This document shows positions 35,141 to 40,100 of a stretch of 64,000 bases of DNA, piece by piece; the first letter of the stretch is position 1, and each line of letters starts with the position of its first letter. Made by a program: the position numbers and the translations under genes. The notes below the pieces were generated by a model that saw only the letters and a list, made by a program, of their open reading frames with translations, was not told the DNA's origin and ran no database searches. The stretch comes from a virus: IMG/VR virus record IMGVR_UViG_3300027963_004416, positions 81,708 to 145,707 of that record. One strand, 5' to 3'.

Positions 35141-37090
35141 ATGAAAATATTTGTGATAAATTTAGAAGCCAGGCCTGATCGCCTGGCTTTTATGTCTGAG
35201 CAGCTTAAAGATGTTGAATGGCAAAGACATTCAGCGCTGAATGGCCATAGTTTAACTATGGATGCAATCGTTCAATTAGATTTCGCACCATACAGCAAAT
35301 GGATTGATCCTCTTCTAGATAGAAAATTAACCAATACGGAAATAGCAGCTGCTATCTCTCATTATCAGTTATGGGAAAAGTGTGTTGAGCTTAATGAGCC
35401 AATTCTTATTTTAGAAGACGACTCACAGCTTGTTGGTGATTTAGATTTAAAAGAACTAGAATTATTAAGTAATGAATATGATATAGTTTATCTTGATCAC
35501 AGAGAGATGTTTCCTGACCTATCCGTAGTCGGAGAAAAATTCGTCAGGCCCTTTTATCCCTACTGGAACAATGCATATGTTATTACACCCAGGCTTGCTC
35601 GTTATATTATAAATTCACCCTATAGATACAATATAATACCGGTGGATGAGCTGTTTCCTATTTTAAGCGGAATTGCTTTTAACGATCATTGTCTAGGTAA
35701 TAAAGAAATTTTTACTTCACTCCAGGAATTACTTATGACGCTACCAACTAACCCGGTAGCGTACAAAGAGAGTATTTTTAAACAACTACCCAGAAAAATT
35801 ATGGGATCTGATATTGAAAGTGGAAGATCGATTATGAATACAGTTCATGTGTTAACAGTGGCAACAGATGAAACAAAACTAAAGTATCTGGATACTTCAG
35901 CTCAAAAGTTTGGAATAAAATTTATTAATCTAGGTAAAGATGTCGTATGGGACGGGGGAAACATGATCGGGCCCGGTGGTGGCCAGAAGTTAAAACTAGT
36001 TAAGAACTATGTTAGTCAAATACCAGAGCAGGACATTGTTCTATTCGTAGACGGATATGATGTTTTTTTTAATGACGATCTACAGACAATAGTCGATCGA
36101 TTTAATGGATTTGACTGTAAAGTTCTTTTTGCAGGAGAGAAGAATTGCTGGCCAGATAAGTCTATTGCTCCTCTGTTCGACGGTGACACTGACTACAAAT
36201 ACTTAAACAGTGGAGTGTATATTGGATACGCAGGTTATGTTTGCTCTCTCATAGAGAATTATATACAAAACTCTGATGATGATCAACTTTATCTTCAAAA
36301 GAAATACATTGTGGATTTATTTGATTCAAAAAAACTGTACAAGATAGATGTCGAGAATTATATATTTCAGTGCTTGGCAGGAGCGGTTGATGCAGTAACT
36401 GTTAAATCAAACGGGCAGTTATTGAATTCTGAAACTAGATGTTGCCCCTGTATACTCCATGGTAACGGTGGCGATTCAGTAAAGAAAGATTTTGATAGAT
36501 TATTTAACACAATCTTCAATGAGAGTGACATAGGTATTGAATTTATGACGCCATCTGGCTATGAAATTGTAGGTCCAGAAATTTTAGAAATTGATTTACT
36601 TACACCAGATATGTGCAAGCAGCTCGTTAATCTTGCCGATAGCCATGGTAAATGGGAGCCTATGAGTGGTGATAAGTTTCCTGCGCAGGAAATAAGAATA
36701 CGAGAAATTGATATTAATCTGTTTAATAAACTAGAACAACATCTTAAAGATAAAGTTTACCCTTTAATAGAGCAATACTGGTTTCCTTTAAGCATGTACG
36801 GTTTAAGAGATGCCTTTATTATTAAATATACTCCAGAGACACAAGCTAAGCTAAAATGTCACCATGATGCTTCTCTTGTATCCGGTAATGTTAAACTTAA
36901 TAGCGAATATACAGGCGGAGATACTTATTTCTACAGGCAGAATTATTCAAACATAAATACATCTGTCGGTAAAATGACTATGTGGCCGGGACAGGTTACA
37001 CATGGTCATGAAGGGAGAGAGGTAACCTCTGGTGCAAAATACAATCTAGTAATTTGGACGAGTAGAAGACCTGGAGATATAAACTACTAA
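35141..37090 (+). CDS. Three-domain collagen-modifying enzyme: GT25 glycosyltransferase + PLOD-type glycosyltransferase + Fe(II)/2OG lysyl hydroxylase
   Basis: aa1-230 GT25 (VINL..RPDR, EI....SHY.LW......ILILEDD); aa232-460 PLOD GT (LTVAT, W.GG....GGGQK, FVDGYDV, LFAGEKNCWPD, YLNSG.YIG, DDDQL, IFQ.L, LHGNG); C-terminal hydroxylase (F..KY.PE.Q..L..HHDAS...NV.LN..Y.GG..F.R...PG..TH.HEG..VT.G.KY). Confidence 0.9.
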   Translation: MKIFVINLEARPDRLAFMSEQLKDVEWQRHSALNGHSLTMDAIVQLDFAPYSKWIDPLLDRKLTNTEIAAAISHYQLWEKCVELNEPILILEDDSQLVGDLDLKELELLSNEYDIVYLDHREMFPDLSVVGEKFVRPFYPYWNNAYVITPRLARYIINSPYRYNIIPVDELFPILSGIAFNDHCLGNKEIFTSLQELLMTLPTNPVAYKESIFKQLPRKIMGSDIESGRSIMNTVHVLTVATDETKLKYLDTSAQKFGIKFINLGKDVVWDGGNMIGPGGGQKLKLVKNYVSQIPEQDIVLFVDGYDVFFNDDLQTIVDRFNGFDCKVLFAGEKNCWPDKSIAPLFDGDTDYKYLNSGVYIGYAGYVCSLIENYIQNSDDDQLYLQKKYIVDLFDSKKLYKIDVENYIFQCLAGAVDAVTVKSNGQLLNSETRCCPCILHGNGGDSVKKDFDRLFNTIFNESDIGIEFMTPSGYEIVGPEILEIDLLTPDMCKQLVNLADSHGKWEPMSGDKFPAQEIRIREIDINLFNKLEQHLKDKVYPLIEQYWFPLSMYGLRDAFIIKYTPETQAKLKCHHDASLVSGNVKLNSEYTGGDTYFYRQNYSNINTSVGKMTMWPGQVTHGHEGREVTSGAKYNLVIWTSRRPGDINY

Positions 37091-37106
37091 GACAGTATAT
37101 ACTGTC
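37091..37106. promoter_or_regulatory. Perfect 16-bp palindrome GACAGTATATACTGTC in the leader of the collagen fibre gene
   Basis: Self-complementary; begins directly after the enzyme stop codon and ends 14 nt before ATG 37121. Confidence 0.55.
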
Positions 37107-37120
37107 ATTTGCGAGGCCAC

Positions 37121-40100
37121 ATGGCAAATAATACATTTCAAATAAAAAGAACCAGTGTATCTGGTCGTGTTCCTACAAGTGAACAGATTAATATCGGTGA
37201 GCTAGCTATAAATTTAGCAGACTCTAAACTTTTCTCCAAGGATACGTCAAATAACATTATTACTCTTGCAGACAAGGGTGATAAAGGAAATACCGGTAGC
37301 AAAGGTGAGATGGGCCCGGCGGGCGATAAAGGAAACAAAGGGGACGCAGGCACTACCGTTGACAAAGGTGACAAAGGTGATACCGGTTCTAAAGGTGATA
37401 CCGGCTCAAAGGGTGATACTGGCTCAAAAGGTGATACTGGCTTCACCGGCACTAAAGGTGATAAAGGCGACACCGGAGACAAAGGTAATAAGGGTGATAT
37501 TGGTCCTTCTGGGTCTAATGGAACGGCCGGTGATAAAGGCGATACCGGATCAAAGGGTGATAAAGGCGACACTGGCACGACCGGGGATAAGGGTGATACC
37601 GGATTTACCGGGGACAAAGGTGACAAGGGTGATGACGGTCAAAAAGGAGACACCGGCGCAAAGGGTGATGCCGGCACAACAGGCAGTAAAGGTGATAAAG
37701 GCGATACAGGGTCAAAGGGTGATAAAGGCGACACTGGCACGACCGGGGATAAGGGAGATAAGGGAGATACAGGCTCAAAAGGGGAAATCGGCGACAAAGG
37801 TAATAAAGGAGACACAGGTGCAAAGGGTGATGCCGGTACAACAGGCAGTAAAGGTGATAAAGGCGATACAGGGTCAAAGGGAGACACTGGAACTACTGGT
37901 GACAAAGGACAGAAAGGTGAATTAGGGCCAGTAGCTGGTAGCAACACGTATGTTATATTCAACGACTCTGATAATTCAAACGCAGTATTATCATTTACCT
38001 TTGATAAGGTTTCTAATACTGTTAGTGTTGGTAACAGTACAGTAAATACTAATATTATTCCAGGTGGTATTACCATCAATGGTATCAACGTAAATACAGC
38101 AATTACAGGCAATGCGACAACTGCATATACCAATGCAACCACTTATGCATCTAACGCTACCAATATTACTACAGGAACCCTAGATACAGCCAGACTACCA
38201 GCTACAGCCAATATATCAACAGCTATAAATGTTGGTGCAAATGTTAACTTATCTACAACATATATCGTTGTTGGTAATACTACTATTAACACTATAGTTA
38301 ATGCTACTGCAGTTAGCATTAATACAAGCACTGCTGGTTCAGGTCAATTTGCAGTAGGTAATACAACAATTAACAGTACAGTTAATTCCACCACACTTGC
38401 AATTAACGGTACCGGTGCTCAATCAAGGCTCGGCAACTCAACAATTAACACTGTTGCCAATGCTACTACTATTATTATTAATACAAGCACTACTGGTTCA
38501 GGTCAATTTGCAGTAGGTAATGCAACAATTAACACTGTTGTAAATGCTACTAATATATCGTTGAGCGCTAACCTCGGTGCTAATAGTACTACCTTATTTA
38601 CTGGCAATTCAACAGTTAATACATCAGTTAATGCTACTACAGTAAGTATTAATACAAGTACTACCGGTTCAGGGCAGCTTGCAGTTGGTAACGCAACTAT
38701 CAACAGTACGGTTAATGCCACTACCCTAGCAATAAATGGCGCCGGTGCTCAGGCAAGACTTGGCAACTCAACAGTAAACACAGTTGCTAACGCTACATCG
38801 TTTAATATTAATAATGGAACTACAGGTACTGGTCAATTCTCAGTAGGAAATTCAACTGTTAATACAGTAGTTGCAGCAGGTTCTATTACTATTAATGGCA
38901 CTAACGTTAATACTGCTATTACTGGCAATGCAGCTACTGCTTATACGAATGCCACTAGCTACGCATCTAATGCAGATAATATAACATCAGGTACTTTAGT
39001 TACTGCAAGATTACCAGCCACAGCTAACATATCAACTGCTTTAAACGTTGGCGCTAATGTTAACTTAACCACTTCTAGTATAAACGTTGGTGATGCAACG
39101 GTCAATGCTTCAATAAACGCTACAAATATTTCAGTGGCTAATGTATTGACCACCTATATGTCTACTACTAACATGAATATTACTGGCAATCTAACTGTTG
39201 CAGGTAATGTTGCTATTATCGGAGCTAATAATCTTTCGATAGTAGATAATATGATTTACTTAAATGCTAATAGTATTACTTCAAACCCTGACTTAGGTTT
39301 TGCAGGTAGCTATAATGATGGTACATTTCATCATGCGGGCTTTTTTAGAGATGCCACTGATGGTGTGTGGAAAGTATTTGATAATTACTTGCCCAACCCA
39401 GATGCAAGCCCATTTATTGATACTTCTAATGCAACGTTTAGAATAGCCGATCTCCAAGCCAATACCCTTACCGTAGCAACGATAAACGCTACCTCCGTTC
39501 TTATAGGTAGCGTAAATGTTAACACAGCTATAACCGGTAATGCTGCAACAGCATATACCAATGCTACTAGCTACGCAGATACAAAGGCAGCAACCGCGTA
39601 CACTAATGCTACTAGCTACGCATCCAATGCAGACAATATTACATCAGGAACTTTAGTTACTGCAAGATTACCGGCTACAGCTAACATATCAACTGCTTTA
39701 AACGTTGGCGCTAATGTTAACTTAACCACTTCTAGTATAAATGTTGGCAATAGTACAGTAAACACAAACATATCGGCAGCGGCTATTACAATTAACGGCA
39801 CGAACGTCAACACAGCTATAACAGGTAACGCAGCTACTGCCTATACTAATGCCACATCATATGCGGACACCAAAGCGGCTACTGCTTATACGAACGCGAC
39901 TAGCTATGCCGATACCAAGGCTGCCACTGCTTATACGAACGCGACTAGCTACGCATCTAATGCAGACAATATTACATCAGGAACTTTAGTTACTGCCAGA
40001 CTACCAGCTACTGCTAATATTAGCACTGCCATAAACGTAGGTGCTAACGTTAACTTAACAACGTCAAGTATAAACGTTGGTAATGCTACTGTTAATATAT

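Follow-up and report, generated by a model that had tools for sequence, protein, structure and literature searches.

Do bacteriophages modify the lysines of their own collagen-like tail fibres in the way that animals modify procollagen? The question is raised by a stretch of 64,000 nucleotides of viral DNA (IMG/VR record IMGVR_UViG_3300027963_004416, positions 81,708 to 145,707; hereafter the window), in which an open reading frame (ORF) for a 649-residue protein immediately precedes the gene of a lysine-rich, collagen-bearing tail fibre. This stretch makes up the right-hand 64 kb of the 145,707-bp virus record, and all coordinates below refer to the whole of it. The source virus is a marine T4-like myovirus, whose large terminase shares ∼56% identity with its counterparts in Methylophilales phage Melnitz and in cyanomyophages. 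In humans, procollagen lysine (Lys) is converted to hydroxylysine (Hyl), then to galactosyl-hydroxylysine (Gal-Hyl) and finally to glucosyl-galactosyl-hydroxylysine (Glc-Gal-Hyl) by LH3/PLOD3 and COLGALT1/GLT25D1. To our knowledge, the glycosylation of collagen hydroxylysine is regarded as a metazoan trait, with mimivirus as the sole other bearer. Sequence comparison and structure modelling identify the ORF as a fusion of a COLGALT-type GT25 glycosyltransferase (GT), a PLOD-type GT and a PLOD-type lysyl hydroxylase (LH), and we consider it likely that this single chain works in the cytoplasm and modifies collagen lysines in the tail fibres of the phage itself.

Domain architecture and catalytic residues of the enzyme

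Searches against Pfam placed Glyco_transf_25 at residues 2-170 of the protein (1.2e-21; 77.9 bits, cut-off 24) and GT_PLOD (PF25342) at residues 233-458 (9.1e-51; 172.9 bits, cut-off 27), the latter match covering profile positions 3-236 of 246. Residues 562-640 matched 2OG-FeII_Oxy_3 at 2.2e-4, under the cut-off of that family. A sequence search of the PDB with the whole protein returned human LH3 at 8.6e-40, in two stretches that correspond to its GT and LH domains, along with mimivirus R699 (1.6e-23), COLGALT1 (∼1e-12) and the LH domain of mimivirus L230 (7.8e-12). Searched on its own, the GT25 domain matched the catalytic domain of COLGALT1 at 1.7e-13, as against 0.014 for solved bacterial GT25 enzymes, and the LH domain matched L230 at 8e-13 and LH3 at 1.4e-11.

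An AlphaFold2 model of the enzyme, with 32 homologues in the alignment, had a mean predicted local distance difference test score (pLDDT) of 89.5 and a predicted template modelling score (pTM) of 0.51, so that the individual domains can be viewed with confidence but their mutual arrangement cannot. Comparison of this model with the PDB using Foldseek gave full-length LH3 at 6.6e-32, with a global template modelling score (TM) to LH3 of 0.31, and the isolated GT domain of LH3 (6wfv) aligned with a target-normalised TM of 0.87 and an rmsd (root-mean-square deviation) of 2.1 Å over 227 columns. R699 and COLGALT1 were found at 1e-18 and 1.1e-15, respectively, and the LH domain of L230, which has the DSBH fold, at 1e-13 (TM 0.75, rmsd 1.8 Å). 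The first enzymes not linked to collagen appeared at ∼1e-7 and comprised a bacterial β-1,4-galactosyltransferase (2e-7) and chlorovirus and bacterial prolyl hydroxylases. Sequence identity to the known enzymes in these fold alignments was modest (16-30%).

An earlier reading of the letters without database searches (the sequence-only reading) had proposed the order GT25, PLOD-type GT and PLOD-type Fe(II)/2-oxoglutarate (2OG) domain. Pfam, PDB and Foldseek bear this out, each domain ranking LH3, COLGALT1 or L230/R699 above non-collagen families in sequence and in fold, and the motifs it quoted (LTVAT, GGGQK, FVDGYDV, CWPD, LNSG, DDDQL, HGNG, THGHEG and GAKY) are all present, with HHDAS at nucleotide 36860. 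Assignment of the first domain to the GT25 enzymes of lipopolysaccharide (LPS) synthesis was ruled out by the relative scores, COLGALT1 being far closer in both sequence and fold. No signal peptide is visible in the protein, which places it in the cytoplasm and not in an endoplasmic reticulum; the first strand of the GT-A fold begins at its N-terminus.

Reference residues taken from structure papers were mapped onto the enzyme through HMMER alignments, and their conservation was followed in 32 aligned homologues that share 41-73% identity with the enzyme. The catalytic Mn of COLGALT1 is held by an unusual Glu435-Asp436-Asp437 motif (PMC12003778), with which E92-D93-D94 of the phage enzyme (FEDD) align. 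In LH3 the Mn site is formed by Asp112, Asp115 and His253 and the uridine diphosphate is stacked between Trp75 and Tyr114, and the gate residue Trp145 and the poly-Asp residues Asp190 and Asp191 are required for collagen glycosylation (PMC6082870). These correspond to D304/D307/H440, W270/Y306, W337 and D380/D381 of the enzyme. L230 binds Fe through H825, D827 and H877 and 2OG through Y814 and R887 (PMC5802723); the Fe triad aligns with H574/D576/H623 and the 2OG-binding tyrosine with Y563. All of these enzyme residues, together with Q382, are invariant in the 32 homologues, except for Y306, which is kept in at least 90% of them.

At the position of the arginine that binds the C5-carboxylate of 2OG (Arg729 in LH3, Arg887 in L230), the enzyme has K633, and it thus lacks a feature that defines PLOD enzymes. 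The substitution had been flagged in the sequence-only reading, where the GTRY motif of PLOD was seen as GAKY. K633 is invariant in the 32 phage homologues and also in 77 stand-alone actinobacterial relatives described below, and this invariance across the family marks the lysine as a fixed trait and not a lesion; decay of the active site was rejected as its cause on the same ground. Judged by its sequence, the hydroxylase is a distinct Lys-variant branch that retains a basic residue at this position, where a positive charge is required, and not an orthodox PLOD LH domain.

The human enzymes (6fxk, 8zgc, 9evj) contain the same three catalytic modules and, Arg729 apart, the same metal and cofactor residues. 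However, the human modules are spread over two proteins of ∼1360 residues in total, whereas the phage has one 649-residue chain in the order GT25 - GT - LH. The accessory (AC) Rossmann domain of LH3 is absent, since only ∼20 residues separate the GT domain (to residue 458) from the LH domain (from residue 477), and so is the N-terminal structural GT1 domain of COLGALT1, the phage enzyme opening directly with a catalytic domain. In architecture, the enzyme is not a PLOD orthologue. Mimivirus is a virus with both collagens and modifying enzymes, namely L230 (lysyl hydroxylase and Hyl glucosyltransferase), R699 (Gal-Hyl glucosyltransferase) and R655 (GT25-like), and the mimivirus enzymes are active when produced in E. 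coli (PMC9546862). The LH domain of L230 is the best single-domain sequence match to the C-terminal phage domain, although it carries Arg887 in place of Lys633. In mimivirus the modules are distributed over three proteins, R699 has an accessory domain and the host is a eukaryote, unlike the single chain, bacterial host and putative tail-fibre target of the phage.

A homodimer model of the LH domain scored 0.78, compared with 0.07 for the best of three controls. Of 30 proteins whose solved structures are same-chain pairs, 20 reached that mark, as did one of 23 known from their structures as single chains. Between runs, agreement covered at least 92% of contacts, and the partner had a pLDDT of at least 90. 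The modelled interface comprises residues 547-551, 573-580 and 616-622, with V619 located where L230 has its Leu873 lock. Since dimers of L230 and LH3 have already been solved, this result may stem from likeness to known structures. The model suggests that the LH domain is probably a tail-to-tail homodimer, held by a hydrophobic lock near the distal His.

Collagen-bearing fibres and their association with the enzyme

The enzyme gene lies 30 nt upstream of the gene for tail fibre 2 and 2.7 kb downstream of that for tail fibre 1. The spacing of 30 nt had been noted from the sequence and is exact: the enzyme stop codon occupies 37088-37090, and the ATG of fibre 2 is at 37121, with a GAGG ribosome-binding site before it. 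Fibre 2 has its collagen tract in the N-terminal part, continues with Asn/Thr-rich repeats and ends in a Peptidase_S74 intramolecular chaperone. Within the tract, Lys occupies the Y position in 35 of the perfect G-X-Y triplets and in the single V-D-K, is followed by Gly each time and is never found at X, where Asp predominates; Thr is second at Y (24/72). The earlier count of 73 triplets with 36 Lys at Y therefore stands, as 72 perfect triplets with 35 Lys plus the V-D-K. Lys makes up 35 of 216 residues (16%) in the tract versus 24 of 1180 (2%) in the remainder of the fibre. In the two fibres' tracts together, all 45 lysines are at Y and precede Gly, and the X-Lys-Gly motif targeted by the human enzymes occurs 46 times in these neighbouring fibres. 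Across the whole 145.7-kb genome, tracts of at least 8 triplets are found in the two enzyme-flanking fibres only, and the enzyme is encoded by a single copy. The position of the enzyme between the genome's only two collagen-like fibre genes suggests that the phage probably decorates its own fibres, with fibre 2 as the main candidate substrate and fibre 1 as the second candidate.

The build of the fibres is ordinary: a part for attachment at the N-terminus is followed by a collagen stalk, repeats and the S74 intramolecular chaperone, as in other collagen-like S74 fibres (E. coli O157 prophage tail fibres, PMC3368898; Bacillus BclA). We asked how far the enzyme and Lys at Y occur together in other phages. 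At E <= 1e-10 the enzyme family is large, with 421 clusters; more than 100 of its members contain all three domains at full length, on contigs that reach 164 kb. Where members have a name (JGI), it is 'GR25 family glycosyltransferase involved in LPS biosynthesis', and the label of phrog_61 is just '2OG-Fe(II) oxygenase'. A protein search of 50,697 phage records found members only in Synechococcus phages S-CAM9, S-PRM1 and S-8S53/55/56, one single-cell-derived marine virus contig and Roseobacter phage CRP-6, all annotated as hypothetical or as 2OG oxygenases. In S-CAM9, S-PRM1 and CRP-6, collagen repeats whose Y residues include Lys and Thr are present 0.7-2.3 kb upstream of the enzyme, within a gene that is a tail fibre in S-CAM9 and CRP-6 and an unannotated counterpart in S-PRM1. 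Two genes annotated as 2OG-Fe(II) oxygenases stand between the collagen fibre gene and the enzyme in S-CAM9 and S-PRM1 (L001:6839-8004 and L002:6839-8004).

At least 222 viral contigs in IMG/VR encode a relative of the enzyme, and 80 of these were sampled for association, a tract being defined as at least 8 G-X-Y triplets and a full flank as 10 kb on both sides. A collagen tract was present in the flank at 63 of the 80 loci and at all 20 with full flanks; most of the 17 loci without a tract are cut off on the side usual for the collagen gene. At each of the 63 loci with a tract, the one nearest to the enzyme shared its strand. As a control, we took 80 viral loci picked only by GG-N7 periodicity over 16 triplets, 78 of which entered the Lys comparison. 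After dereplication of the enzymes at 70% identity, 30 clusters remained, 23 of them with collagen. Median Lys at Y was 0.40 in these 23 clusters compared with 0.0008 in the 78 controls (Mann-Whitney p = 3.6e-12), and Lys at X was zero in all 23. In the controls, the Y position is mostly Thr, Gln or Ser. G+C content was rejected as the cause of the Lys enrichment, as it showed no correlation in the controls and the contrast held against controls matched for it (n = 31; median Lys at Y 0, p = 1.5e-9). The co-occurrence of the fusion with G-X-Lys collagens on which the sequence-only reading had staked its proposal is therefore strong.

One control, with Lys at Y of 0.24, itself encodes a full three-domain enzyme. 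On the control contig richest in Lys (0.57 at Y), a 633-residue protein encoded further along lacks the PLOD-type GT and consists of an unassigned N-terminus of ∼200 residues, GT25 and LH (L202:97-2585). On the chromosome of Kaistia terrae DSM 21341 we found a 444-residue protein with PLOD-type GT and LH but no GT25 (L206:1119-11269), and 7.4 kb upstream of its gene a 480-residue collagen-repeat protein, with an autotransporter between them. Both of these architectures are paired with collagen and point the same way as the three-domain enzyme. A sulfotransferase gene directly follows the GT25 + LH variant, and the window also contains one (52389-53162); sulfation, either of the hydroxyl or of the glycan, may thus recur among such loci.

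The features of the locus are collected in the table below. The genes form a same-strand block in the order fibre 1, fibre-assembly-like gene, two unknown ORFs, enzyme and fibre 2.

Table. Features of the enzyme and fibre locus, in coordinates of the window.
Feature	Position	Strand	Description
T4-type late-promoter box TATAAATA	30263..30270	+	35 nt upstream of fibre 1
Tail fibre 1	30305..32437	+	710 aa; Collagen 7.9e-10, Peptidase_S74 2.8e-12 (C-terminal chaperone); tail-fibre and baseplate PHROGs
Fibre 1 collagen tract	31802..31936	+	15 G-X-Y triplets, 10 Lys at Y, 0 at X
Tail-fibre assembly-like protein	32427..32756	+	109 aa; phrog_1084 1.4e-28; phrog_3304 'L-shaped tail fiber protein assembly' 2.2e-24
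630-aa protein, same gene block	33018..34910	+	No match in Pfam search
Three-domain enzyme	35141..37090	+	649 aa; phrog_61 match over full length, 1.4e-103
GT25/COLGALT-type domain	35141..35836 (aa 1-232)	+	COLGALT1 best match in sequence and fold
PLOD-type GT domain	35837..36514 (aa 233-458)	+	Pfam PF25342; LH3 alignment; fold
PLOD-type Fe(II)/2OG LH domain	36569..37087 (aa 477-649)	+	L230/LH3 sequence match; fold
Perfect 16-nt palindrome GACAGTATATACTGTC	37091..37106	+	In the 30-nt spacer between enzyme and fibre 2; read from the sequence
Tail fibre 2	37121..41311	+	1396 aa; Collagen (PF01391) 8.7e-31 (105.9 bits, cut-off 27.2), Peptidase_S74 2.1e-13; tail-fibre PHROGs
Fibre 2 collagen tract	37277..37933	+	9 + 63 perfect G-X-Y triplets, one V-D-K between

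The late-promoter box TATAAATA occurs only twice in the 64-kb window (30263-30270 and 63760-63767), versus 13 ± 3.7 times in shuffled sequences, and this strong avoidance is consistent with a functional late promoter. No terminator outside ORFs was found on the + strand from the box at 30263 to the end of fibre 2 at 41311. The box probably starts a transcript that spans both fibres and the enzyme, which would then be co-transcribed late.

Directly past fibre 2, the region 41705-52396 is an array of tandem paralogues of ∼450 residues with RCC1-like repeats, and its G+C content is 0.44-0.46 versus 0.36-0.39 elsewhere. Further along in the late structural block (50497-59444) are genes for two methyltransferase-domain proteins, a sulfotransferase, a GT2 enzyme, a PfkB-family sugar kinase and an NAD-dependent epimerase/dehydratase. 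This glycan-type cluster may supply or extend a fibre glycan.

Stand-alone relatives, exceptions and competing explanations

A scan of prokaryotes, with one genome per species, identified 77 loci, nearly all in Acidimicrobiia/Ilumatobacteraceae, that encode a stand-alone oxygenase of ∼200 residues without GT domains (L207-L283, for example L216:8901-10642). The remaining matches were on two small, probably viral, contigs of metagenome-assembled genomes and in Kaistia terrae. The stand-alone oxygenases are the closest cellular relatives of the phage LH domain and carry the full Y...HxD...HxH...KY signature, including the Lys that they share with the phage enzyme. At 53 of the 65 loci that could be tested, the oxygenase gene is directly downstream of that for a 378-residue paralogue of the catalytic domain of glutamyl-/glutaminyl-tRNA synthetase (GluRS/GlnRS). 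Presumably these Acidimicrobiia oxygenases have another substrate, possibly one related to translation.

Several observations weigh against a collagen lysine-modifying function of the phage enzyme. Its LH domain is 36-40% identical to the stand-alone Acidimicrobiia oxygenases versus ∼25% to L230 and LH3, and no G-X-Y run of at least 8 triplets was found within 10 kb of the oxygenase in 74 of the 77 loci; the other three have a minimal 8- or 9-triplet run on the opposite strand (two of these are L209 and L255). Given these collagen-free relatives, specificity for collagen is not intrinsic to this branch of the fold. Since the nearest cellular relatives are not linked to collagen, the collagen assignment rests on the fusion with two GTs and on the genomic coupling, and not on the LH domain by itself. 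The same result also implies that collagen tracts do not appear beside arbitrary genes. The arginine that binds 2OG, conserved and essential in LH1-3 and L230, is replaced in the enzyme, albeit by a conservative and invariant Lys. In one clade of three-domain enzymes (∼40% identical), Y is dominated by Gln and Lys accounts for only ∼10%; at a further enzyme locus, for which the downstream flank is cut off, Lys at Y is 0.03. A control genome that is 95% complete has Lys at Y of 0.23 without the enzyme, so moderate Lys at Y does not require it. Lys at Y together with Asp at X could instead serve charge-pair stabilisation of a proline-poor triple helix. Neither specificity nor the choice of sugars follows from the sequence, and neither hydroxylysine nor its glycosylation is known from any bacteriophage. 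The collagens of the Gln-at-Y clade (L017, L019, L023-L028, L030, L032 and L033) are very long, with up to 320 triplets.

The association was also viewed from the side of the collagen. Among 115 viral loci picked for Lys at every second Y, an LH-type match was present in four, these loci being short stretches only. In 17 whole contigs among the most Lys-rich, partial matches were found in six, namely one GT25-only ORF and five oxygenases of ∼200 residues (E 1e-7 to 1e-12). Lys-rich viral collagens thus also occur on contigs without an enzyme match; all of these contigs are fragments, and as they are 3-58% complete the absence of the enzyme from them means little in either direction. The contigs of L293, L315, L323, L305 and L360 carry stand-alone ORFs of 197-225 residues that match only the C-terminal half of the LH domain, and these ORFs may represent a split or alternative hydroxylase.

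It is conceivable, though unlikely, that the enzyme does act on the fibres but with other chemistry, such as direct O-glycosylation of Thr at Y (compare the GXT triplets of Bacillus BclA), hydroxylation of Asp at X, Asn or Pro, or the activity of one GT only. The frequency of Thr in fibre 2, where it ranks second at Y, and its common occurrence across the enzyme loci would fit such a scheme, as would the low Lys of the Gln-at-Y clade and the stand-alone LH relatives, which clearly appear to act on other substrates. However, controls without the enzyme typically have Thr-rich collagens, so that it is Lys and not Thr that tracks the enzyme. Both GTs, moreover, retain the residues of enzymes with Hyl or Gal-Hyl as acceptors, and the joining of a hydroxylase with two GTs is best understood if the hydroxyl created is the acceptor. 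We hold it to be very unlikely that the pairing reflects shared ancestry, with enzyme and Lys-rich fibre travelling as a mobile tail-fibre cassette in which the lysines are only electrostatic stabilisers of the helix. Related phages are indeed not independent samples, and both the Lys-rich collagens on contigs without a detected enzyme and the 95%-complete genome described above agree with such a cassette. Against it, the pairing holds for enzymes just 38-40% identical and in phages of different sizes and lineages, the X position of the fibres varies (Asp, Pro, Ala, Gln or Ser), and the enzyme may precede the collagen gene or follow it (53 upstream, 10 downstream). The pairing recurs with two other domain architectures, and the catalytic residues are strictly conserved.

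Alternatively, the enzyme might modify a component of the host, for instance its LPS, one of its surface proteins or a translation factor, to achieve takeover or superinfection exclusion. In pelagimyophages, the glycosyltransferases of the host-recognition cluster have been read as modifiers of the host O-chain (PMC7029224), GT25 is named for LPS biosynthesis and JGI labels the homologues accordingly, the actinobacterial relatives adjoin a tRNA-synthetase paralogue, and a glycan and sulfotransferase gene cluster is present downstream. We nevertheless regard a host substrate as highly improbable, because it leaves unexplained the near-obligate, same-strand pairing with Lys-at-Y collagens in myophages as well as in the 45-kb roseophage CRP-6; the greater proximity of the GT25 domain to COLGALT1 than to bacterial LPS enzymes and the location of the gene within the late structural block also argue otherwise. 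Equally, COLGALT1 uses a non-catalytic GT domain as a scaffold (PMC12003778) and the Arg-to-Lys change sits in the 2OG site, which could be taken to mean that the phage protein is catalytically dead or serves as a structural or chaperone part of fibre assembly. The invariance of the metal and cofactor residues of all three domains over deep divergence makes this scarcely credible.

Proposed pathway and significance

Modification of the fibre lysines could proceed as follows, in a scheme whose chemistry, sugars, timing and advantage for the phage are all inferred. The enzyme gene would be transcribed late, together with both fibre genes. In the cytoplasm, the C-terminal Fe(II)/2OG domain, probably as a tail-to-tail dimer, would hydroxylate the Y-position Lys of G-X-Lys-G to 5-hydroxylysine with O2, before or during trimerisation of the fibre chains. 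The GT25 domain (COLGALT-like, inverting, with Mn bound through Glu-Asp-Asp) would place the first sugar on the hydroxylysine, and the PLOD-type GT domain (retaining, with Mn bound through DxxD...H) would attach the second. By analogy the product would be Glc-Gal-hydroxylysine, and a mimivirus-like, Glc-based variant is equally possible. A decorated stalk may be more hydrated and protease-resistant, or may help to set host recognition.

Searches of the available literature for PLOD- or COLGALT-type enzymes in bacteriophages found no description of them, in line with the remark in the sequence-only reading that such a system was not known to have been characterised in a bacteriophage. Iyer et al. 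(2010) predicted that dioxygenases of other families hydroxylate collagen-like proteins of bacteria and also noted arrays of dioxygenases in cyanophages, but not this fusion (PMC2938197). What is known is the chemistry and the modules; what is new is the single-chain architecture, the setting in the bacterial cytoplasm, the proposed tail-fibre target and the Lys-variant hydroxylase.

A broader view, which we offer tentatively and consider on balance doubtful, is that tail fibres across hundreds of aquatic phages bear animal-type glycosylated hydroxylysine, made in the bacterial cytoplasm by a minimal one-chain, three-step enzyme, as a coat that tunes host recognition or fibre stability. By extension, the PLOD/COLGALT toolkit of animals would descend from a prokaryotic or phage module, with the Lys-variant hydroxylases of Acidimicrobiia as its ancestral, non-collagen form.

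The existence of cultured carriers, namely Synechococcus phages S-CAM9 and S-PRM1 and Roseobacter phage CRP-6, makes the proposed modification of tail-fibre lysines directly testable. If it is correct, a 649-residue, three-step enzyme native to the bacterial cytoplasm would be a tool for the production of correctly modified recombinant collagen in E. coli, and glycosyltransferases that the literature assigns to the modification of host LPS would have to be reinterpreted. It would also represent a new type of post-translational modification on the receptor-binding fibres of phages and, with relatives of the enzyme on at least 222 viral contigs, a chemistry that is widespread in the ocean and in lakes.

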